Assembly (NCBI RefSeq): GCF_026571515.1
Contig: NW_026865484.1
Location: 1,116,001-1,180,000 of the forward strand
Reading direction: 5' to 3'
DNA: 64,000 nt
Origin: Ruditapes philippinarum
Taxonomy: Eukaryota
Shown: one piece after another, positions 2,790-53,728 of the stretch
How positions within the stretch are numbered: the first letter of the stretch is position 1
How the letters are laid out: each line of letters begins with the position of its first letter
Translations under genes and position numbers: made by a program
The notes under the pieces: model-generated
What the model was told of the DNA's origin: nothing
What the model saw: the letters and a program-made list of their open reading frames with translations, nothing else
The model's database searches: none

Positions 2790-3460
2790 TAAGAAGATGA
2801 TAATTTATTGTATGAATAACAGTCTGGTTTTAGAAATTCCTACTCTACTGATAGATTTCTTATCCATCTTATGGATCATATCAGAAATACTACTACTAAA
2901 GGTTTCCACACAGGCATGATAATGTTTTATCTACAAAAGGTTTTGATACTGTTGAGCAATGAGTTCTTATGTGAAAAACTGAAAAAAGAAATGGTATTAC
3001 AAATACAGACTGGTTTATGTCTTATCTTAGAGGTTGAAAACAATGTATGTATTTATAATATGTTATCATATTTTCAGAATATAAGCCTTTTTCATGTGGG
3101 GTTCCCCAGGGTAGCATCCTGAGTCCTCTTGTATTTTTGTGCTGTGCTTATAACATGATAATTAGTAAAGATGATGAATGTAAACTTATTCTGTATGCTA
3201 ATGACAGCGCAATTCTGTTCACACACAAACACCCAAACACTCAAAAACTTGGAAATGTATTAGGGTATTATTCAACTTGGCTTGTAGATAATAAATTGTC
3301 ATTACATCTAGGAAAGACTGAATGTTTTATCTTTCATTACAAACAAAAGATTAAACAAGTTTAATAAACAAGTTAAAAAGAGTTTAAAATTGTTTGTAAT
3401 GGACATATTATTGAGTCCAAACAATTTGATAAAAATCTAGATCTAAATATTGATAATTCT
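2790..3460 (+). mobile_element. Decayed non-LTR retrotransposon reverse transcriptase fragment (CR1/L2-like)
   Basis: Remnant motifs across stops and frameshifts: SGFRNSYST, GMIMFYLQK.FDT, GVPQGSIL.PL, LYANDSAILF (YADD-derived), WLVDNKLSLHLGKTE. Confidence 0.8.
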
Positions 3461-7400: not shown

Positions 7401-10400
7401 TAACTTAAATATTTCGAATGGAAATTGAAATACTAGAGTTGAGAACAAAAATGTTAAAGACAATAGTTATTGTCTACACCATTGACATAATACGCATTAG
7501 AAAATATTTTAAGGAAGCTAAATGATTGTGCGATACTACATTTTAGCTGTGAATACGATAAAAACATTTAAGCTGTTGTGTTTTTATTAAAGTCATACAG
7601 ATCATTTTAAAGCATAATTATTTTCCCTTGATTATATCTCACGTTAAGTTATGGTGAAACAAAAGAAAAATAACAAAGAAAAAACTAAACTTGTTACAAA
7701 AGGAAATAAAACCCATCTTTTTTACAAGAGAGATACCTGGCTATGTTTTGTTTTTCTAAAAGCAAATAACTTTTGAACTATTTAAAACAGTGTACACGTT
7801 AGACTTTGTGCTATTTCTCTTACATTCCAGGGAAGGGCCCACGATAATGTTGTAAAAACTTTTGGCCCAACCCTTTTGTATATTGTGTAATTTTGTTGAT
7901 GTAAATGAATTGTTGTATATTTATATATGCAATAAAATATTATTAAACTTCTCTTACATTCAATATTATGTACTTGATGTTATTTTCATAACTATAGATA
8001 AAGACAACAGTCGTACAATTAGCTTAAATATCCTCTAAATACTAAGTTAAAGCACATAGCTATATTTGATATATAAGTTTCTAGCGATCCTTCAGCCAAA
8101 AACCGGCACTCAGCGTACACTCATAATAAGCCAAGGTACGTCCCTGACTTGTCAATGTCAGAGCTGCATTACTGGTAATGGTACTCAATGTACAAGACTT
8201 GTCAATGTACATGTATATACAGGTGTTATACAGAAGTTGATAATATAAATGTAAGTCATATTAAAATTGTCCAGGTTTTACTGCAGTGATTTTGCAAGTA
8301 CTGGTACTGATACTGAATTACTCTTACAAAATTTTGCTACTACTGGTACTGGTACTGCATTACTGTCTTAAAAAGTGCTACTGCTACTGCATTACTAGGC
8401 AGTACTTTTGGTTTTGATAAAAATAGCATAAATTTTTCTCATGAAATAAAGCTGTAATTTACATTATTTCATTTTTGTGGAAAAAAAAGTTATCAAATCT
8501 ATAGATAATTTGCTGCAATATTCCTTCAAATGTAAACATAGTATTTATCATAAAAAGCACCAAAGACTTTAGTAAAAATTAAATTGAGATACACAGACTC
8601 AATAACTCTTTACCCTAAAATATCCTTATTAAAATCTTTTATTACTTTGTATTTACTAGTAAAAGAGCAAAATAATCACTAATTAATTGCTTCTATTTTA
8701 AAATTTTCTATTTCAAGTGATATTGTTAGCACCATAAAAAATTGTTATTTACTTTGGTTTAAATTGAACAGAGGTGTGAAGGGGTGAAAGGCAACAAAAG
8801 ACTGTTGTGTTTTAAATGAAAGATGATTGCATTGTATTACAGTTGACTTGTTACTAAACAATAAGATATGACATGAATATATGTTGTAAATATTGTTTGT
8901 AAAAAGTATGTTAAAACTATAAAGTTGTAAAAATGTTATGTTAACTTGAAATTAAATTATGATTTTATTTATTTGCTGAATAATATTTGCAATTATTTGT
9001 TTCACACTGTGTATTTATTCAAACTTTGATGAATATATAAAAGTAATGGTACTGATACTTAATTACTTCAGCAAAAAAAGTACTGGTACTGTAGAACCGA
9101 GCTAAAATCTAGTACTGGTACTGGTAATGGTACTGCATAATTTGCCAAGTACTGGTACTGGTACTTAAGTATTACACTCTTAGTACTGATGCAGCTCTGG
9201 TCAATGTACAAGACTTGTCAATGTACATGTATATACAGGTGTTATACAGAAGTTGATAATATAAATGTAAGTCATATTAAAATTGTCCAGGTTATGATGT
9301 AGTTGGAGTATGTAATTATGCATTTAATACATTTACCTCAACTTTATTAAAAGTAGTTAATATAATGAAAACAAAAAAACTTTAAATTTTTGCTTTTATT
9401 TGGTTTTAAGGAGCATTTCTACATCTTTTGGATCAGAAACAGCTTGTGACAATCTTCTGTGAACGTCCTCAGCTTGTTGCACAACATCCTGATCTGTTGC
9501 TAGGCAACCTGGATACCCTTGACCTTTGTGAACTGTTACAGTTAGTTGAGGTGCTTGACCCTTCTAAGCCTATTATTAGGGGTTTTGTGCAGAGGAAACT
9601 GAACTCAAGGAGAAGAACTAGCTCATTGACATCATTAACAGGGTCAGGAGAATTTGGAGATAGTGTAACAAGTGTAAGAATGGTAAGTAATGTTACATGT
9701 TTAGTATAAGAAATTTGATTTTAAAAAATGAAGCCTGCCAGATGGCAGTGGGGAAAGTTTGATAGAGTTTATTAAAGCACAGCAAACTTAAATAAGATTT
9801 TGAGATCTGTTAAGGATTTTCTTACTCACATTAGCATATATCAAGTGCTTTGTGGCAGCTATGAAAAGTTGTCCTGTACTTGATCTTAGTATTGTTGCAT
9901 TTTTCTGGTCTTACAGGATCTTTGATCCAATAACTTTTATAGTGTTAAATAAATCAATGAGAGATATAGCAATTTTAACTTTGTCTCATGGACAGACTCA
10001 ATCAAACGTTTATCTCATAATTTTTCTCTCATAATCCCTCATTATTCTCAAGAGATTAACCTTTTTCAGACTTCTAATTGTTTATGGTTAATGTACTACC
10101 TAAACTTCAGGATGTGAAGAGTTTAGATGCTATGAGAATGGTCCACTGTTTCATCATGGTAGTACTTCATTTGAACAAGAGGAGACTTCTAGATGGTAAA
10201 CCAGTCAACACTGACTTCCTGTTTGAGGACATGGAAGATACTCTAAAAAATATTGTAAGTATTCTGTTTTAAAATAGCATTTTTAAATGAGCAGTTTTAT
10301 CTAATTAAGCAATTGGAAAGTGTTTAAACAGCTAATTATTTGATAATTTCTAGAACATATTTAATATGCGTATTTATATGCGTATTTAAATGTTTATAAA

Positions 10401-13400
10401 ACTTATGCGTCTGCTCAAAATTAAAAACATAAAATGTGGTCACTAAACTTACCGTTTCTGTTAAAAGGTACTGCTAGGAAGGTATTTAATAGGCTTCCAT
10501 TAAAAAATAAAACAAATTATAATAAGCTAAAAAATGCTTTGTTAAGGCAGTTTAAGTTAACTAATAATGGGTATAAAAAAAAAGTTTAAAACCAAAAAAC
10601 CCCGTAAAAATAAAACTTTTGTTATGTTCCTAGCTAAAATTTCTAAATACTTAAATGGTTGGCTAAAATTAAGTAAGGTAAAAAAAACTTATAAAAAGTT
10701 GTTAAACTTCATAGTAAAAAATCAATTTTTAAATATCTGCAATAAAAAACTATATCAAAACCTTAGTAGTAAAAAGTTGTTTTCAGCCGTAAAGTAGCAA
10801 AAAATGCAAATTTGTTTGCCAAAACTAAAAAAGGTCCAAAGTATGTAGTAAATCATAAAATTAAAAAAAAAGCTAAGCCTTATGCACTGCCAAGTAAACC
10901 TGTAAATAAAAATCAAGGTAGTAGTTATCGTATGCAAAAAGGTAACAATAAACTGGTAAATAAAGGTAAAGCATCTCAGCAGTATAAAGGTTATAAATGC
11001 ACATATTGTGGTCGTTTAGGGCATACAGCATTTTTCTGTAAAAATAAGGCTACAAATAAAGCTAACGCAGCAAAAAACATAAAACCAAACTCAATAAATC
11101 CAAGTAAAAATAATAATAGTTATCAGGGTAATAAAAGGCAAAAAGGTTATAAAGGTAAAAGTAAAGGTAAAAAAAAAAATAAAAATGCAAATTCAAAAAT
11201 TCATGTACACCCAGTATTTTTTATTGCAACTATAGCTTTACCATTACATATACCTTTAGTTGTTGGACATGAATTTAGAGTAACTGTACCCACGTTTTTA
11301 AAATTTTTAAGTTTTATTAAACTACTACCACTATTTGATCATGTTATACTGCAGTAGCCATAGCTTCGGTAAGTTAAATTGGTATACAATTCGAGACATT
11401 TGAACTTTGATTTCTGTATTGGCGTCAATTTAATGACAAGATTTTGAGCCATTGAATAGAAATTTAGTAATTTACAAAAGAAAACAGAATGAAAAGGATA
11501 GGGCGATAACTTAATTAACAAGCTTACAGTAGATACATGTATATCCTGTGTCATTATCATACATTGATATAATAATAATATAATTCTTTAATAAAAATAT
11601 AACAGGGTAAAAAATTGGTTTTTCATTTTCTTTACGATATGGAGAAAATCGACTTATCAAAGTTCGACATATATGGTAGAGATTTAATTTAGTTTAGCTA
11701 TGGTTTAAATGTTGGCATGTCTGTCATATTAAACGTCTAATTCCTTTCTGTTTATGATTTCTATAGCTACAAAGTTCCCAGTCAAACAGAAGGAAAATAA
11801 ATCCTCGGCCTAATCCTGTAGGCTGTGGACAGACCCATGCTGCAGTGGCACTAAAGAACGGTGATCTCTATACTTGGGGGAAGTCCAACAATGGCAGGTC
11901 AGTTTACATTAACAAATTGTTACATGTCTAATCATTTGTATTACTATATTTAATTTTATGGAATGTATAGCTGTCCTTCATACCCCTGAAATTTACAGTC
12001 CATTGGTTGGATAGGTAATCTAATGTGTGCTCTGTTTTTCTATGACAAATATTGAAATAAAATCAATGAGTGTTGTAATTTTGTTGACATAGACAAAGAA
12101 ATAGAGAAATCTTGTTGACAATAATTTTTTTTATTTAAAACCAAAACATTTAAAGTGAATTAAAACGAAAAAATTAAAACATTGGGAATAATACCGGATT
12201 TACAGTAATAAAACACTTGCTGGAAGGTTTTTGCTTTCAAGGTCTTATATGTTTACGAAACACATTTTCTTGTTTATATTTTATTCATTGTTAATACATC
12301 AATACTGTAAACAAACAGTTGTTATTTGTATGTAGATTGGGACATGGGGAACAGAAAGGTAGCCCTGTATCATGTGGACCATGTAGAATAGGAAACTTTC
12401 AAACACTACAGATTAAAGTGACCTCTGTAGCATGTGGCATGCAGCATACAATAGCACTTACCAATCAAGGGGTAGGTATAAATGAAACATATAAATTCTG
12501 CATTCTGCTTTGTTTTCTTTTGAAATTATCTACTTAAAACACATTATGCTCTTCCTTTCATAGCATAGCATGAAAAATATTACAAATAAAAGAAAACAGT
12601 TGATTTTATCTTCACAGGCACTATTTCATGGATTATATTACCTTAGCAGTTGTAAGGAGCATTTCAAAATTGATTACGATTTGTGTGTACTGATGTTCAT
12701 AAGAAGAAACATTTCATTAAATTAGTTAAATGTTTTGTCATATAACTTGCAGCTCTATGGATGGGGTTCATCTAAGTATGGTCAGGTTGGTCTAGGAACA
12801 AAGCACATGTACACTCGTCCTATGCCTTTAGAGGAGATGTCAAAGGTCACATGTGTCGCCGTTGACTGCGGACAATACCACTCTGTAGCTCTAACAGAAG
12901 ATGCTCAGTATGTATAGAATAAGTTACTCATTAGCTTGTGAAATACTCAATCGGGTAACAAAGTAGTTTCCACTGTCCATTGTTATTAATTTCTGACCCT
13001 TGATCATATTCCTAAAGGAAAAGACTAGTAGTATTCTTTTTCTCCAGTTGACGGACAAAAAAATCTCAGTTGTAAGATTTTTTTTGTTTTAAAAATATGT
13101 GATCTGATTTTCATATATAGATAAAGAAAATGTTTTTTATACTTGAAAACAAAACATTCAACAACCGCAAAAGTAGTGTTGTCCTGATTGTCTCTGAAAA
13201 TCGATAACTAATCGGACCACCCCAAAATTGGTGACAAGCGATAGTCCTTTTTAAAAATCGATTATTTAACTTTTAATGTTCTACCACCGCTGAATTGCCT
13301 ATACTTTATTGTTAATACTACTTTAGAAAATTATAGTGTGTAATAACATAATATTATAAACTTACATATCTAATGTATTTAAATAAGTGATCTGCAATAT

Positions 13401-16400
13401 TTTGACCTGTTGACTAGTACTAATATTGACTGCCATAAAGTTGTATTATACAAAAATTGCCTGTCACAAAGTTGTATTAGGTATTTGTGTTGTTTGTTTT
13501 GAATTCAAAGAATAAATCTTACTTTTATCATGGAGACAAGAGTTTATTTATTCTCAAAATGTGGTCACTACTGTATAAAAAAAATACATACAAGGATTGA
13601 TACCTTAAAAGAAAAAAGGGCCATAAAAGATGCGAAACTCGATTATACTATCGGCAGACAATCAATTTTGGTGGTCCGGTTATCGATAGTGATTTTTGAG
13701 TCGGATACCCAACACTACTCAAAAGTAAATTTACAGTTTGGTGCAAAACAATTAGATTGACAGTCCTGATTGTATAGGTTATGTTACTAAAATACTAGAA
13801 AAAAATCTCTACACTATGATGAATGACAACAATTTTTATACAGTTAATTTGTACAAATGAAACCAGAATCTATACTAATAGCCGCTCAATTTTAGTATTT
13901 TAATTCTGAAACCCTTTTTACTTATAATAGATTGTACCAAAATCAACCTGGGACAAGTCCAATACAGAAATTCAGCAGGGGTAATTTATAACATGTTTTT
14001 CAGGCTGTACAGTTGGGGTTGGGGTGTACATGGTCAACTAGGTCATGGAGACACAGAGGAATTAATGGTTCCAAAACTTGTGGATAGTTTCAGTAACCAG
14101 TCTATTGTCAGGGTTGCTGCTGGATATTGTCATACATTAGCTCTTACTGCACAAGTATGTATCGTTTAAAATATTTAAAAAAAAAATCCAACCTGGTAAT
14201 TGGCAATTTTAAATTTTTTATTTTGATTGTGTATTGCATTATGTATTTTGATGCTTTATTCCAATACTGTCTTTAACAAATGGTTGATTGTTATGATTGT
14301 TATAATTATATGTCAATATGACTTTTTCAAGAAAACAGGAAAAAAACTGTTAAATACTGTATAGTAATATTTTTCAGGTAAAATTATCATATATGTATTT
14401 TGTAGTCTCAATTGTGAATTTAGAAAAGTGAAGTCTTGTTTTTGAAGGAAGATTGTAAATTAATTGGTTATAATACTGATGACCTTTTTAGCTGGACTAT
14501 TTGATAAGAATAACTAGAGGTATACTAGTCACCCGAGCGTTGGCATCGGAGTAACCACTTATGTTAAAGTTTTTGTAATACGGCTTTGAAACTTTGCATA
14601 CTTGTTCACCTTCATGACCCCAACCTGTAGACAGGAGGAGGTAACTCTATCAAGCATTTTGACAGAATTATGCCCCTTTTTCGACTTAGAATTTAGGTTA
14701 AAGTTTTTGTAACACCTCATATATTTTCAAAGTCCATTGACATGTGGCTTTGAAACTTTGCACACTTGTTCACCATCATGACCCCAACCTGTAGACAGGA
14801 GGAGGTAACTGTATCAAGCATTTTGACAGAATTATGCCCTTTTTTGACTTAGAATTTATGTAAAACCTCAAATATTTACAAAGTCTATCGACATATGGAT
14901 TTGAAACTTTGAACACTTGTTCACCATTATGCCCCCAATCTGTAGACAAGAGGTGGTAACTCTATCAAGCATTTTGACAGAAAAATGCCCCTTTTTCGAC
15001 TTAGAGTTTACATTAAAGTTTGCATACCACCAAGTTGAACATGTAGCATTGACAGTGCTGGAATGACCTTTGAACAAATAAAAAGTATATGAAAACAGAA
15101 ACAATAGGCTTTAAACATTGTTTAACTGTTTAATTCTTTTGTTTGTATCTGGGGCAGAATATTATGGAACAAACAACTTGAGACAGTGCTGCATTACCTT
15201 TTTGTCCATTTAGCTGGACCTGCAGCCATTTTGTCATGTTGATTGTTGTGAAAGGGTTTATTTAGGTCTGTAGTTAAGAGTATCAATAAGAGGAACATCA
15301 GGTGATTGGCATAAGTTTTGAAGTGTCTCTCAGTATTTAACCGGTTTTAAATTTTTAATTTCAATTTATAAAATTTATCAATGATTGTATGTTTATAATT
15401 ACGGTGATAATGTGGGATTTAATCACTACACTTATTGATAGATCAATTGGACACCATCACCAGACCATTTATCTGGTTTGTAGTTGCTCTTATCTTTATA
15501 TATTGTTCCACTTTGTATGCATTTGTTGAATCTTCTATTTTCCTATTACATTTTGTAGGGAGAACTTTATGCATTTGGCTGTGGTTTCTTTGGCCAGCTT
15601 GGATTGGGGACTAGTATTAAACATACACTACCTGTCAAAATCACCAGCATTCCTGATAAAGTCATCACTATGGCAACCAAGTTTTTTCACTCTGTAAGTA
15701 TGTTTGTTACATTCAGAATACTAATAAATTACTCTGTGGTTAAAGTAACAAAATTTTGCATACTATACATGTAAACCAGGATAGTACTTTTTCTAAGAGT
15801 GGAGAATGATGAGGATATTAATAACAAAATTTTATTAAAAAAAGAAAGCAACAACAAAAAAATTAACCTCCTGATTAAATTGTGAGACTGTAACTGTTTA
15901 ACATCAAAATTGTTGTCCATGGGGCTTTTTAATATAAATGAGACACCATTATAACATCTTTGGACAATAAACATAAATCAGTAACAAATCTAAGTTAATA
16001 TGTTTATTGTGCAAAATACGACTGTATATTTTTGTAATGATTTATTTGTATGTGACAATCAGTAATAACAAAAACTTCTTCATCAATCTAGATAGCAGTT
16101 GACAATCATAATCATGTATATCAGTGGGGAAGTCATCCACATGGACTGAGACATTTTGTTCACAATCAGCGAAGAGCCAGGCAAGCAGGTCAGAGTATTT
16201 TTGAAGCAGCAGACAGTCATCTTAGACCTCAAATAATTGATACCTCTTATGTACATGGCAGAATCAAACAGGTATTGATGTAAATTTTAAATATTTAATA
16301 AACACAAAATATACCACCAAGCAAGACTCAAATGTTTCAAAGTTTCTACCAGTTCTTATGTTAGAGCTTTATTATTTCTGAAAAACTGTAAGTGTATTTA

Positions 16401-19400
16401 CTTTAATCAGATTTATTTAAACTTAATTATGGACAAAGATTAAAGCATATTTGAATTACTCCTGAGTCTGTTTCATATCACTTACCAATACTTATAAATT
16501 TTGCCCTTGTCATGACCATTGCTTAAACATACAATTCCTGGAACTGCAAACATATTAACCACTACTATTTACACGTGCTACACCTATGCTCTTGAATGTT
16601 TGTAATCAAATTAATTAAAGTAGAATTTGGCATATAAGAAAATGTTCTGCCTGATGCGTTAGGTAACAGGATGAAAGAAGTTAGATTTCTTAAATAAAGT
16701 TAGACCTCGAAGAATTAATTACTATTTTGTTATAATTAAGGCATTTCAAGTAAAATGTGTACACTTATACCAGCTTCACTGAAATTTAATAAGATGGCAG
16801 TACATGTATTTTCATTTTAAGACTATCTAAAGCCCTTATACTTCTTAATTTTGTCATGGAATTGCTCTACTAAGAATTTGAAATAGTCCATTTAAAGTTA
16901 GGAATTTCAGTATCAAAATACAAAAAATTATCTACAAACACTATAGAGCCTGGTCCAACTGTAAGTATGACACTATACTAGATGACTAAAAAGCTAATCA
17001 CTTTTTGTTCCAGAACATTAAAGGTTAAACTGTATTAATTTAATCTGGTGTCCATTGTATTATGTTACAGGTTGTATGTGGTAGTTTCCACACATGTATT
17101 ATAACTAGGGATGGTGACGTTTATACCTGGGGTAGGAACACTGATGGTCAACTTGGCAACGGAACAAGACAAGATGGGGTAATGTCTATCATTTGTTCAT
17201 TGTGATTCTGGTTTTTCAGTTTTCTTGTTATTCTCTTATTTTAGTGCTACATGATGTTTTTGTGAAAATATTTTGTCTAAAACTGAGTTATCCTTAGAAA
17301 AACTGATTTTTGGTATTCAGTTCATTGCTGATACAATTGATAAGTTATTGAAATATTGAAAAAAAATGTAAAAAATATCTGACACATATCATATGTCCTA
17401 GATGTTGTATTTACATGTGACATATGTTTAATCTGTGACATATTCTAGATGATTTATACGTTTGTGACATTTGTCCTAGATTCAGCATTTAATTGTGACA
17501 TTTGTTCTAGTTGTGTCATTTGTTTGTGACATATGTCTTAGATATAGTCTGTATTTTGCATGTGGTATGATTATTATCACAGGTTTGACTGTATACTTAT
17601 TGTATTTTATAGAGAATACCTCAAATGGTAACAACCATCAATGATCGTACTATTATACACCTGACATCAGGGGGAGAATATAATGTTGCCATGGATACAG
17701 ACAGTCAGATTTGGGTATGGGGTAGAAATGAATTCTGTCAGGTGAGATTTTATCCAGAATTACATTTTGTTTAAAACATCTATGGAATGTTTCTTAGCCC
17801 TTTTATAGAAATTTAAGAATTTTCTAGATATTGTTAAGGCAAAATTATTTGTATAGATTGTTTAAAGATTTATTATGGCAATACTTAAATTAAGAAATTG
17901 AACCAATAGTGCAAATGACATGTCACAGAAATGTTATATCTGCAAGAAAGCTGTAATATTATTTTGGCATTTCAAATAAAGTAAGTGTCAGGTCAACAAA
18001 TTGTTTAGATTGTGAAACAAGGGTATGAATTAACTTTTGTTCACAAAATCATTGTACATTGATATGCATATTTTAATAGCTACATCTTACATCATAAGAA
18101 GTAAGGAATACTTTTCATCTGTATCCATCGCCTATTTATTACAAAAGTTATTGTGTTGTGTTGAAATCAGTGTGAAGTGATTAATCATTTACTCAGAAAT
18201 AATAATCATGAATCAAGATTTTAAAGACATACTGAAAATTTGTATGTTAACAATGTGTATTTTTGAATTTCACAGTTAGGTTTACAAGCTTCAGACCCCA
18301 GACAATCAAATAAAGTTATAAAGACAGCAGGGTCTAAGAACTTGAGCCAAAGTCTTTCAGAAGTGCTGGCACCAACGCTTTTAAAACTCCAGCCTGGTAC
18401 CCTGCATTCATCATGGCAATATAGACCACTCACAGAACAGTTCAGCATCTCAGAATCAATGGAGAATCTTATGGTAAGTAGTAATAGACCCAGTACGATA
18501 AATTCCAATCACATTATTCAATTTGAGAGGGCACCACATGATTCAATTAGAGAGGTCATTGCATAATTCAATTTGAGAGGACATTGCATAATTCAATTTG
18601 AGAGGGCATTGCATAAATACTTTGAGAGGACATTGTATAATTCAGTTGAGAGGGCATCGCACAATTCAATTTGAGAGGGCATCACATAATTCAATTTGAG
18701 ATGACATCACATAATTCAATTTGAGAGGGCATCACATAATTCAATTTGAGAGGGCATCACATAATTCAATATGAGATGGCATCACATAATTCAATTTGAG
18801 ATGACATCACATAATTCAATTTGAGAGGGCATCACATAATTCAATTTGAGAGGGCATCACATAATTCAATATGAGATGGCATCACATAATTCAATTTGAG
18901 ATGACATCACATAATTCAATTTGAGAGGGCATCACATAATTCAATTTGAGAGGGCATCACATAATTCAATATGAGAGGGCATCACATAATTCATTTTGAG
19001 ATGACATCACATAATTCAATATGAGATGGCATCACATAATTCAATTTGAGATGACATCACATAATTCAATTTGAGAGGGCATCACATAATTCATTTTGAT
19101 AGGGCATCACATAATTCAATTTGAGAGGGCATCACATAATTCAATTTGAGAGGGCATCACATAATTCAATTTTAAAGGGCATTGCATAATTCAATTTGTG
19201 AGAGAACAAACATGGAAGCATATCAGTGGTAGAATCAAGATATGACAATCTTTCACACTTTCACTGCCAGAACTATAATTGTACAGTTACAGTTCTATAT
19301 ATTTGCCTATATTCTAGGACATTTTTAAGACCGATAGGACTTAACAATAGAAAATGAATGCTTGTGTAATTATGGGATGATTTTTGTCACCTATGAAATA

Positions 19401-29757: not shown

Positions 29758-30765
29758 TTAATTCCAACAGTTATTCCTTTCACTTTCTGGAACCAAACTC
29801 CAATTTGGAGAATGTTTGTCTGCGGCAAGCCAATTGAAATCATCAATATCATCCCAACTATTTCTATTTTTGTCAAGGCCTGAAATACCATAGTGACTCT
29901 CAATTTCTGGGTATGTCCAATTATAAGGTCCAAAGGTTACTGATGAACAGTCTTCTATAATTGCTCTGCTGGTTACATGAATGAAGAACTTTGTATCTGT
30001 TGTTGTGTGTATACGTAACTGCTGGCAGGCCACAACAAATGTACAGTTTTTACATCCTCGGATAAATATAGACCCCGACACTGGACCTGACAAGATTGTA
30101 CAGTTTGTCAATTTATTAATATGAATAGCAGAAGGTGCACCAAGAAGTCTAATGGTACAAGATTCTAGTCTTGCAAGAGCAACATCTTTCTTATTTATTT
30201 CATCTTTCATGTATAATTCCTTTTCTTTCATGTCAGTAAATTTACAGTCGGCTAAAATAACACTGTCATCTTCATCATCACCTTCTTTCTTCACATCCTC
30301 CTGTTTTTCCACAACCGTTCCCTTTTTCTTAGATTTAAATGCAAACTTCTTCTTTGGAAGTAACTTATCTCTTTTTTCCTGGATCTGTGTTTGCAACTTT
30401 GATAAAATATCCAGTGTTTGCTGAACATCATATGATGGCAAAAACATAGTGGATTCTGTGAAGAAGCGTTGCAGTTTTTGATGTTTAGCAGTTAAATCAT
30501 CAAATTTTTCAACAAGTTTATTTTTATCCAATGAGTCACATTTTTCTAGTTCATTTTCTAGATTGATCTTTTCAGTTGAAAATTGATCATAGAAAAATTT
30601 AGCGCTTTCCTTGACAGATGTTACCGCCGATTTCTCTTCTTTGCGTTTCTGGATGTTAGCTAGTCTTTCATCTTCCCTCTTCTGTAATTTCTCTTCAATT
30701 TCATGTTTCTTATTGTCGAATTTTTCAATATTTTCCATAACAACAACTTTTTGTGATTCAGCCAT
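29758..30765 (-). CDS. TBCC: Tubulin-specific chaperone C (tubulin folding cofactor C), intronless, 335 aa
   Basis: N-terminal helical region with FLPSYDV and LLPKKKFAFKS. C-CAP/cofactor C domain GPVSGSIFI..C.NC....ACQQLRIH......F.IHVTSRAIIEDC....FGPYNW.Y, ending W..IDDFNWLA....SPNW. Confidence 0.97.
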   Translation of the reverse strand: MAESQKVVVMENIEKFDNKKHEIEEKLQKREDERLANIQKRKEEKSAVTSVKESAKFFYDQFSTEKINLENELEKCDSLDKNKLVEKFDDLTAKHQKLQRFFTESTMFLPSYDVQQTLDILSKLQTQIQEKRDKLLPKKKFAFKSKKKGTVVEKQEDVKKEGDDEDDSVILADCKFTDMKEKELYMKDEINKKDVALARLESCTIRLLGAPSAIHINKLTNCTILSGPVSGSIFIRGCKNCTFVVACQQLRIHTTTDTKFFIHVTSRAIIEDCSSVTFGPYNWTYPEIESHYGISGLDKNRNSWDDIDDFNWLAADKHSPNWSLVPESERNNCWN

Positions 30766-32124
30766 GATTTAGAATGACAGCTTATATCATTAAAATATTT
30801 TAAAAATATATTGATAAGTTGTCACATGTTTGATTCAACTAGATTGTTTCCGTTCTACAACATTAAAAAGAACTGTTTTAAAAATTGTCAATCACTGCAA
30901 ATTACTATAAAATTGAGTTTATTTTTAACGATGTAAGCGACTCATGCTTTTCGGTGGTTGTACAGAACTGAGATTCATTTTAGGTTGAACATCACTAATT
31001 ATCCTTTACATTGTGCAATTTTTAACGTGTACATTTAAACAGGCCAATCAACCTATGCTTCTGAATTGAATAAAAGGAGCAAACATCATTACTTTCAATC
31101 AGAGTTTATTTTTTAAGCAGATGCAATTTATCATTGAACATTTATGCCTCGCACTCCATAATGTGTATGGTGTTCCGATTAGGCAAATGGATACTTAAAT
31201 TAACATGTTTTATTTTAACATCGTGTCAACATCGCGTCAAAAACAACATTGTTACGTTGTTTACTTTAATTATATTTTATCTACATGGTATATAAACACA
31301 AATCATTTTCTAAAGCAATAATCACAATTTGTGATTATTGCTTTAGAAAATGATGTCAATGTTCATACAAAATTAAGGTATGGTCAAGTTACAAGTATAT
31401 TGTGTATTCTAGCAATTTTAGATTAATTATAAAGTTATTGACACAAGCTGTTTGTATACAAATGTAAGTGGTAAAAATGCGTTAGCTTACAAACAAAATA
31501 AAGAAATATGCAATGAAATAAGATATATAATAAATTATCCATTTGCCACCAGCTAGAATAGATGTCCAAACGTTGATCAAATGTTAATTATTAATTGTAG
31601 CAATTATTCAATGAGTCATATTTGCGCTAAAACTTAGAAAAAAACACACTGAACGGTAATCAAAATCTTATTCTCTGTATACATTTGTGTGACATGTACT
31701 TCTTACCTACTCACAAATAATATAAAACAATGTTGCAGTGGACAAGACTTTATTTGTACATACATATTGAGTTAAATTGCATATGTAACTAAATATTTCA
31801 GTAAAATTTTAATATTTAACGTGTACATGCTCCAAACCAATCTGCGGTTATTTTATACAACATATACAACATAAACCCCAAAATCTGATGGATTATTCAT
31901 CTATGGACGAATGGCAGCTGTCCACGAACCAAAACCTCTTCGAGGAAAATCAAAGCACAGAAGGTGCTGAATTTGTTTGGGTCTCAGAATGTCAGAAAGG
32001 TGAAGGTTGTGAGATTATAAACCAAATTGTTTTTGTATTGTACCAACAATGCTGTTTCCAGTGTTATAACTGTAGTAAATTGGCTATAAGACTAATTGCA
32101 ACACTGCAACAATCAACACTGATT

Positions 32125-32695
32125 TAAGGAAAATTTCTCATATGAATGTTATTTAGATGTTCTAGACATTAGAAAATTTAGATATATATACTCAAATTTT
32201 AGAATAGGGTCACATGATCTTGAAATTGAGGTTGGTAGACATAAAAAGATATTGAGGGAAAACAGATTATGCACAAAATGTTCTAAGAATGTAATAGAAG
32301 ATGAATTTCATTTTTTACTATGTTGTGATTTTTATTCAGAACTTAGAAAATTATATTTACCGATTAAGTACCTAAATGCTCCAACCCGAAACAAATTTAA
32401 TATATTAATGTCTACAAAAAATGATGATCTTATAAAGGGTACAGCAACATTTTTGTATTACGCTTTTGAAAAAAGGAAGATTAACAATTAATATGTCTTA
32501 GATACAAAATGATAATTAAGAAACTCCCAGAAAATTTTTTTTATGCTTAAAAGTTATTTTCAGTTAAATTTATATAGTATATGTTTAAACATTGTGCACA
32601 TGCTATAATTTTGTGTAAATTGTTTCTCTGTATATATGTTTTTGCATGGGCCGGAGGCCTTAAAGCGAATAAAGTATTTGTATTGTATTGTATTG
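32125..32695 (+). mobile_element. 5'-truncated non-LTR retrotransposon 3' end inserted into another element
   Basis: FRIGSHDLEIEVGRH..RENRLCTKC...VIEDEFHFLLCC.FY..LR C-terminal Cys/His motif; AATAAA and a (TATTG)n tail at ~32669-32695; the host element resumes at 32696. Confidence 0.85.
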
Positions 32696-52313: not shown

Positions 52314-53728
52314 AGCTAGAAATAACGTCTAATGTCGGTCATGACTTTGAGGAATCAATGATGTCAGAGATACAGCGAAGTGAGGATTTAAATGCAGATG
52401 ATATCACGTTAGAAAACGCAAGCTTTAGCAGCTTAACGGATTTAGAGTCAGGGACAAACCTTTTAAATGATAGTATCAACAAAATGCCCAATTTCAATCC
52501 TGACAATTCTTTACAGCACAGTTACATACATGAAGACAATTTACATGATTTAAATGCTCTCAGAACAACACGTGATAGTATACACAGACAGAATAGGAAT
52601 AACAAAGATGATAAGGGTTCTAATATGAAAATAACAACGGACATAGGTGGATTTGTATCCGAACAATACGATAAAAGGGATAGGTTGGATAAACATCACA
52701 GTTTAAATAGCTCAAAAATGTCCCATCAAACAGAAAAATCACCAAAAAAATCACTGTTTCAGTCGGCCAGAGAATCACAATCCCCCAAAAAGTCAAAAAC
52801 CCCTAAAACAGCAAATTCATCTTCTTCATCACCAAAAGAACCACGATCCCCCAAGAAGTCAAAAACCTCTAAAACGGAAAAATCATCTAAAAAGTCTAGG
52901 TCACCATCACCAAAAGAACCACGATTCCCGAAGAAGTCAAAAACCTCCAAAACGGCGAAATCATCTAAAAAGTCTAGGTCACAATCGCCAAAAGAATCAC
53001 GATCCCACGAGAAGTCAAAGACCTCCAAAACGGCGAAATCATCTAAAATGTCTAGGTCACCCTCACCAAAAGAACCACGATCCCCCAAGAAGTCAAAGAC
53101 CTCTAAAACGGCGAAATCATCTAAAAGGTCTAGGTCACAATCGCCAGAAGAATCACGATCCCCCGAGAAGTCAAAGACCTCTAAAACGGCGAAATCATCT
53201 AAAAAGTCTAGGTCACAATCGCCAAAAGAATCACGATCTCCCAAGAAGTCAAAGACCTCTAAAACGACGAAATCATCTAAAATGTCTAGGTCACCCTCAC
53301 CAAAAGAATCACGATCCCCGAAGAAGTCAAAAACCTCCAAAACGGCGAAATCATCTAAAAAGTCTAGGTCACAATCGCCAAAAGAATCACGATCCCCCAA
53401 GAAGTCAAAGACCTCTAAAACGGCGAAATCATCTAAAAAGTCTAGGTCACAATCACCAAAAGAACCACGATTCCCGAAGAAGTCAAAAACTTCCAAAACG
53501 GCGAAATCATCTAAAAAGTCTATGTCTCCATCGCCAAAAGAATCACAATCCCACAAGAATTCAAAAAAGCTCGAAACAGCGAATTCATCTAAAAGGTTTA
53601 GGTCACCATCGCCCAAAAAATCACGATCCCCCAAAAAGTCAAAAACCAAAAGGTCAAAACCTGTCAAGAAGTCACGATCGCCAGCAAAATCAAAACCACC
53701 TAAAAAAGGAAAGACACCTAAAAGGTAG
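52314..53728 (+). CDS. Ser/Lys-rich SPKK-repeat coding exon (protamine-like/H1-tail-like), probably an alternative last exon of the tetraspanin
   Basis: Acceptor CCTTTTTCGTGTTTTGTAG at 52313, phase 1 and in frame with ORF 52358-53728. About 11 copies of a 78-bp/26-aa unit SPKESRSPKKSKTSKTAKSSKKSRSQ. Confidence 0.75.

Follow-up and report, generated by a model that had tools for sequence, protein, structure and literature searches.

A gypsy retrotransposon fragment with an APOBEC-type editing pattern, inserted without integrase in the clam Ruditapes philippinarum

Editing and capture of retroelement cDNA in described systems

Editing of retroelements by deaminases has been reported only in vertebrates according to a screen of 123 genomes (Knisbacher and Levanon, PMC4866542), which reports no editing in invertebrates, where 21 elements stayed at the level of noise, and used these animals as its negative control. 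Of the 19 invertebrates in that screen twelve are dipteran insects (flies and mosquitoes), and for its single mollusc the annotated LTR sequence amounted to 0 bp (supplement table S1). Within a window of 64,000 nucleotides of the R. philippinarum genome, the whole stretch of DNA analysed here, we identified an insert which resembles the 'ultra-edited' class of vertebrate LTR elements (PMC4866542) in its clusters of G>A changes in the element sense, its strand bias, its dinucleotide motif, a number of edits far above 25 and its fixation in the germ line. The GA motif is as for human APOBEC3F. Unlike the vertebrate class the insert has a bivalve host and its editing is complete (95/95 GA sites), and it is an internal fragment caught without integrase, full-length copies of the element being unedited at the sites probed.

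AID/APOBEC-like genes of invertebrates were described in 2018, with retroelement targets proposed by analogy (PMC5889660). Krishnan et al. (PMC5889660) count 22 of these deaminases in oyster and put forward transposons as their targets, and Liu et al. (PMC5956068) report sea urchin deaminases with mutator activity in E. coli. The clam, a lophotrochozoan, resembles these sets in possessing frames with the HxE...PCxxC motif. Editing of a native retroelement is not shown in the available text of either paper, whereas the clam locus supplies both a footprint and a motif.

In yeast, minus-strand intermediates of Ty1 are inserted at breaks (PMC11372161), and like these captured cDNAs the clam insert is an internal fragment with no LTR ends, is made of more than one piece, and shows short microhomology and no target duplication. 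As is required of cDNA capture, the foreign piece at this locus sits between host ends that are not duplicated, and short microhomology or templated filler is present at its borders. Capture of retrotransposon cDNA at double-strand breaks reportedly occurs in mouse zygotes as well. Unlike the yeast and mouse zygote cases, the clam insert is a natural germ-line allele of an animal in which the deaminase record shows in what order the events took place and which strand was the template.

Twin priming is the geometry proposed for the 5′ inversion of LINE-1 (PMC10760644). The clam insert shares with it the in-place inversion of one of two adjacent segments and, as reconstructed below, a second priming at the target site and the joining of two new strands. 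It differs in having no poly(A) and no target duplication, in deriving from an LTR element, and in a tail-to-tail join which needs an antisense (minus-strand) template and not sense RNA. So reconstructed, the insert works like LINE-1 twin priming and is not a member of that class. Snap-back end joining, in which synthesis leaves an inverted repeat near the join (PMC2943611), is similar in its apparently blunt join and in its templated insertion from nearby sequence, but here newly copied strands of a foreign template would be joined and the statistics are weak. The literature searched, mostly papers outside subscription journals, yielded no report of invertebrate or bivalve retroelement editing and none of twin priming on LTR cDNA, and the available portions of PMC5391955, PMC13428168, PMC7768089 and PMC3185545 contain no case of invertebrate editing or LTR twin priming.

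The insert, its source family and the pattern of changes

The insert (window positions 10378-11337, about 1 kb with 960 aligned element-derived bases) is part of a young Gmr1-like gypsy retrotransposon and consists of two segments. Segment A (10378-11201) is an edited gag fragment including a SCAN-type capsid part, with the element sense on the + strand and a zinc knuckle at 10998-11039; a SCAN match for this region was seen in a natural copy. Segment B (11202-11337) is inverted, with the element sense on the - strand, and covers the edited gag-protease junction, its minus strand reading ...GKAIVAIKNTGCT. A first-pass annotation of this DNA had read the protease motif on the minus strand as IKNTGCT, which translation of 11204-11224 reproduces, and had expected an unedited IRDTGCT, which is not what the family has: the natural copy reads MRDTGCT, so the first residue was edited too, and editing also altered the codon of the catalytic Asp. 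The strand flip placed by that annotation within 11190-11340 also stands, although element-derived sequence stops at 11337 because 11338-11340 are present in the empty allele as well. The insert lies within 10255-11766 (+), a putative GT...AG intron judged by its splice-site letters, in a + strand RCC1-repeat gene with RCC1 matches at 12295-12534 and 13882-14166.

We searched the window's own assembly (1.41 Gb, 15,874 contigs) and scored 40 of 79 candidates, identifying 39 other places that match 10378-11201 at 85-87 % and 38 that match 11202-11340, in full or in part, on the other strand. Twenty-nine matching copies were fetched for comparison, and copies are 95-99 % identical to L002, our main reference. 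In 29/29 natural copies the counterpart of B follows that of A on the same strand after a gap of 10 nt (26 copies) or 11 nt (three copies), confirming the earlier view that the inverted piece belongs to the same element. Natural copies are ~8.1 kb long and the captured part lies ~2.2-3.2 kb from the 5′ end. Direct repeats are seen in two of four fetched copies: they measure at least 483 nt in L037 and at least 593 nt in L039, are 99 % alike, end in CA and are followed by a TGG-type primer-binding site. The remaining two copies are interrupted or cut off. Pfam domains in L037 run in the order SCAN, H2C2/rve, RVT_1 and RNase H with a protease motif before the integrase, and the order SCAN, protease, integrase, RT, RNase H defines Gmr1-like elements (bioRxiv 10.1101/2025.03.03.638093). 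Judged by LTRs, primer-binding site and domain order, the source is a Gmr1-like Ty3/gypsy LTR family. Coding positions 1500-4500 of L037 are GA-rich and TC-poor (42-66 versus 7-17 per 500 nt), so that its minus strand is full of targets; avoidance of editing targets was not seen in this copy.

All editing comparisons were made pairwise against natural copies. On the coding strand the insert differs from L002 by 117 substitutions over 960 bases comprising 115 G>A, one T>C and one A>C, and the picture is identical against all 29 fetched copies. Segment A accounts for 101 G>A among 102 substitutions and segment B for 14 changes that appear as C>T on the + strand among 15, a flip in strand bias with a Fisher p=3e-18. 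The direction is G to A, as at 113 columns the A of the window is found in at most 2 of the 29 copies and G in most. Every G directly before A has changed (95/95; 84/84 in A and 11/11 in B, host bases excluded), together with 18 of 20 additional G's in runs ending in GA, compared with 0/96 G's of runs before T and 2/42 of runs before C; the difference between GA (95/95) and G[CT] (1/105) has p=1e-57. Coding-strand TC, the target of the opposite strand, has changed at none of 27 sites with no C>T at all, and a G at CpG has changed only when GA or a run into GA comes next. All 95 GA targets are fixed as A with zero G>C or G>T and none restored. Between natural copies the background of GA>AA is 1-8 per 84-682 sites, with a maximum of 6/84 (35 non-self loci of the 37 given). 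Codons are altered at 79 of 324 positions, mainly as R>K, D>N and E>K, with one Trp changed to stop. Seen from the minus strand, the edits are C to T at TC, spreading into adjoining C's, a run-on to be expected from an enzyme for which a first U at the -1 position counts as T.

The window has no GA-free run longer than that at 10478-11266 (788 nt), the second longest measuring 155 nt. The return of GA without TC on the + strand, described in the first-pass annotation, is seen as well: no TC occurs between those at 11201 and 11339, and GA stands at 11266, 11271, 11278 and 11337. The TC-free run of segment B is not significant by itself, since 12 out of 3189 gaps between TCs across the window reach 130 nt or more; it is the comparison with natural copies that decides. 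Host flanks retain both dinucleotides (GA/TC 14/8 and 15/4 per 200 nt). The bias follows the coding strand of the element and flips with the inverted segment in flanks that keep GA and TC, in agreement with the earlier reading; because it tracks the element and not the host strand, editing preceded both inversion and insertion. Since 115 of 117 mismatches to an unedited relative are G>A, against a threshold of at least 25 forming the majority, and given the context described above, the insert agrees with APOBEC-type editing on every criterion that can be tested in sequence.

The empty site and the path of capture

Contigs of four public runs out of 24 (X1, X8, X9 and X11), from four studies, were compared over 9500-12500. 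Gaps in contig cover (e.g. 10940-11100 in X8 and X11) were left out of the evidence. The edited sequence is present in contigs of all four runs and is thus not an error of sequencing or assembly; contigs of X1 bridge all three junctions, those of X8 the right and those of X9 the left, and X11 has no junction-bridging piece among the pieces listed. Two of the four runs, X9 and X11, contain an empty allele in which 10364 is joined to 11338 with GTAT between, from which it follows that there is no target duplication and that 4 host nt have been replaced by 13 nt repeating the start of A. X9 looks heterozygous for the insert, with depths of 89 and 104, and the insert allele is an inherited polymorphism. 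X8 has family letters at both of the before-C exceptions and at a neighbouring T>C site (10593-10599), and in X9 one edited site (10857) carries the letter of the family. Two 1-nt indels in the window are absent from all four runs and are probably assembly errors.

Insertion took place without integrase or target duplication. Capture without integrase had been proposed earlier, and the comparison with the empty site upholds it: there is no LTR and no duplication of the target. The left junction (10365-10377, +) is formed by the 13 nt that replace host sequence and largely repeat the first bases of A, with the previously noticed 12-mer occurring twice at 10364-10387 and a microhomology that is 2 nt long and ambiguous. 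At the right junction (11338-11340, -) the 3 nt of microhomology are shared between the host end and the start of segment B, and this 3-mer has a frequency of 0.031 in the donor; the only unedited GA in the alignment lies within these host-owned 3 nt. The internal tail-to-tail junction at 11201/11202 (11197-11206) was located by alignment and has no plain microhomology. A 10-mer spanning it reappears in inverted form at 11267-11276, 70 nt off, with a chance of 0.026 in simulated joins and 0.068 at ordinary positions for what was a post hoc observation, and the same nearby-repeat test found nothing at the two host junctions. The 10-mer is only suggestive, and snap-back synthesis at the internal join is possible.

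We propose that the locus reflects deamination of a minus strand followed by its twin-primed capture at a break, an explanation to which, taken whole, we assign a probability of about 0.65. The path would start with one molecule of the Gmr1-like family in which every minus-strand TC had become TT with run-on into neighbouring C's. That change very probably arose through C-to-U deamination of single-stranded minus-strand cDNA, the run-on fitting an enzyme that accepts U at -1, and the editor is likely to have been one of the clam's own AID/APOBEC-like deaminases, for which there are candidates, at work in germ-line cells. The level of editing in HIV has its minimum immediately 3′ of the primer-binding site and rises the longer the DNA stays single-stranded (PMC1635257); this gradient together with saturation in gag, distant from the 3′ primer tract, suggests that the strand remained single for long as a stalled product of reverse transcription.

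For the capture itself we lean towards a path in which both ends of a break prime on one edited minus-strand cDNA in a twin-priming geometry. The two 3′ ends of a host double-strand break would anneal to the same minus strand by 2-3 nt, the left end copying A until nearing the second primer and the right end copying B in the same direction, and the new ends would be joined tail to tail by microhomology-type end joining, probably by polymerase theta, which has a role outside Drosophila. Polymerases would read U as T, giving G>A on the + strand in A and C>T on the + strand in B. The top strand of A runs away from the left host end and the bottom strand of B away from the right, both in the element sense. 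A left primer stopping ~10 nt short of the right primer would account for the adjacency of A and B, and the unedited GA in the 3 host nt is as expected of a primer; we estimate that, for two pieces drawn independently from an 8-kb element, so small a gap would arise about once in 400 cases. Against this explanation, both microhomologies are short (3 nt on the right, 2 nt and ambiguous on the left), the edited sequence and double depth of X11 could mean a longer edited donor, and the pattern at the junctions would not by itself distinguish twin priming from the ligation of double-stranded pieces.

Such a ligation is the core of the first alternative, in which edited cDNA turned double-stranded and broke at sites of uracil excision, after which two neighbouring pieces were ligated with one flipped. 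Two of the four breakpoints adjoin an edited G, the internal junction has no plain microhomology, and insertions made of several fragments are frequent at yeast breaks (nearly 4000 of about 33,000; PMC11372161), but the enrichment at breakpoints has P=0.20 (chance 0.21 each) and the 95 targets without transversion or restoration bear no trace of excision. This route requires three breaks and the capture of two adjacent pieces, and gives no prediction that B should start 10 nt after A and at host microhomology; three independent breaks leave that start unexplained, whereas two primings explain both of its features. We consider it unlikely, and the first-pass suggestion of broken, uracil-processed cDNA is not borne out, since all 95 targets fixed as A indicate uracils that were copied and not excised.

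A second alternative, that an edited element was fixed elsewhere or was longer here and that the fragment was copied during break repair or trimmed later, leaves the editing step the same and draws mainly on X11. This run has a loose end at 10378 where a two-contig consensus extends 5′ of the left junction with A at 5/5 GA sites in 30 nt; the consensus agreement of 0.92 corresponds to one edited and one unedited contig. Its depth on segment A is 21.9 compared with 10 for its empty allele, about double, and X11 probably holds a second GA-edited copy of the family reaching 5′ of the insert. That sequence could stem from a separate event, from a donor or from a longer form of the allele, and the doubled depth on A does not discriminate between the three. 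The left junction resembles a secondary repair scar, but X11 may be pooled, and a search of the assembly for the upstream edited motif of X11 gave nothing above the control, with one match at 2 mismatches (control 1). A double-stranded template furthermore fails to explain how both ends copied one strand in series.

The absence of further edited copies from the places examined in the assembly weighs against any broad claim of recurrent editing and against our own explanation too, X11 being the only sign of recurrence. No second edited copy of the insert region was identified among the 40 scored candidates of 79 in the DNA search, and edited sites numbered 0/42 at an integrase probe, 0/47 at an RT probe and none among at least 202 at an LTR probe; the probes cover four 26-nt positions of the 8-kb element, and short edited fragments elsewhere escape them. 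A cross-family integrase motif was doubly changed in 0 cases and unchanged in 104; a second abundant family plus smaller ones share this motif. Four LTR variants returned by the LTR probe proved to be ordinary copies, and a protein search with the edited gag frame gave nine matches of which four were inspected, none being an edited relative. Full-length copies are unedited at the sites probed, and one event is well documented. An origin of the insert from a genomic donor appears quite improbable.

A third alternative dispenses with a deaminase and supposes that reverse transcriptase put T opposite G under a shortage of dCTP, with slippage giving the GA preference. Slippage was part of the explanation of G>A hypermutation that preceded APOBEC enzymes. 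It too predicts run-on into G runs, and mutants of HIV RT have been shown to make G>A errors when dCTP/dTTP is low (PMC3185545). However 95/95 changes at GA beside 0/96 before T would need ~140 error-free C's in one molecule, and there are no real frameshift errors, given that the two 1-nt indels of the window are absent from the four runs, which makes this path very improbable. Mutation after insertion into the intron of a + strand gene, followed by inversion, or else an assembly artefact, is largely refuted: opposite biases on one host strand with untouched flanks rule out RIP-like and transcription-linked models, the irrelevance of CpG context to G>A rules out CpG decay, a later inversion would require a breakpoint exactly at the insert end, and the edited sequence is in 4/4 runs from four studies. 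The feature is confirmed as real, in a host group thought to be without editing; its enzyme and the exact path of its capture we infer.

Candidate deaminases, wider meaning and other features of the window

A profile search identified five loci (L031-L035) above the APOBEC_N cut-off in the genome. These AID/APOBEC-like loci lie at G000:C509:28735-29430, G000:C2309:141065-141658, G000:C12228:234007-234456, G000:C8225:8861-9454 and G000:C3367:199216-199434. Four of the five have uninterrupted frames with the HxE...PCxxC motif and one has stops; four, the stop-bearing locus among them, group together at 38-63 % identity to the first. The long frame of the fifth opens with hydrophobic residues, which in our reading makes it similar to secreted types. 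The Inv-AAD model had no match in the genome. What would tie these candidates to the edited insert is family function alone.

The locus provides a direct footprint in a mollusc, on the minus strand and with a TC motif with run-on, and because it is inherited it names the compartment as germ line or early embryo. The edits serve both as a strand label and as a time stamp for the patching of cDNA into breaks. We see balanced odds for a wider reading in which bivalves would have an active TC-specific APOBEC-like germ-line defence that edits LTR-retrotransposon cDNA to such an extent that the edited molecules almost never integrate and survive only as break-captured fragments. Were this so, screens of annotated LTR copies would have missed edited fragments for that reason, restriction of retroelements by deamination would extend outside vertebrates, and with the clam insert an AID/APOBEC-like enzyme of an invertebrate would for the first time have an in vivo target and a motif. 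The strand flip would then have recorded, in nature, how both ends of a break primed on the same single-stranded cDNA. The place to look is among GA-free fragments that repeat annotation may miss and not among full-length copies, and the question of the targets of invertebrate deaminases reduces to a simple assay on four or five candidate genes.

Elsewhere the window contains a single-frame gene for tubulin-specific chaperone C (TBCC) at 29758-30768 (-), whose best named relative is from Mercenaria mercenaria (80 %) followed by those from Mactra, Dreissena and Mya, a ranking that points to a venerid-like clam as host. A short high-copy repeat at 12170-12207 has many loose ends in all four runs. 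Frames at 2820-3364 and 32123-32491 (+) resemble what we take to be decayed LINE reverse-transcriptase and LINE C-terminal pieces. A tandem array with a unit of ~22 nt at ~18535-19190 accounts for long CT-, GT- and CC-free runs there, and long TG- and TT-free runs with a strong AT skew at 52755-53600 probably mark a further repeat.
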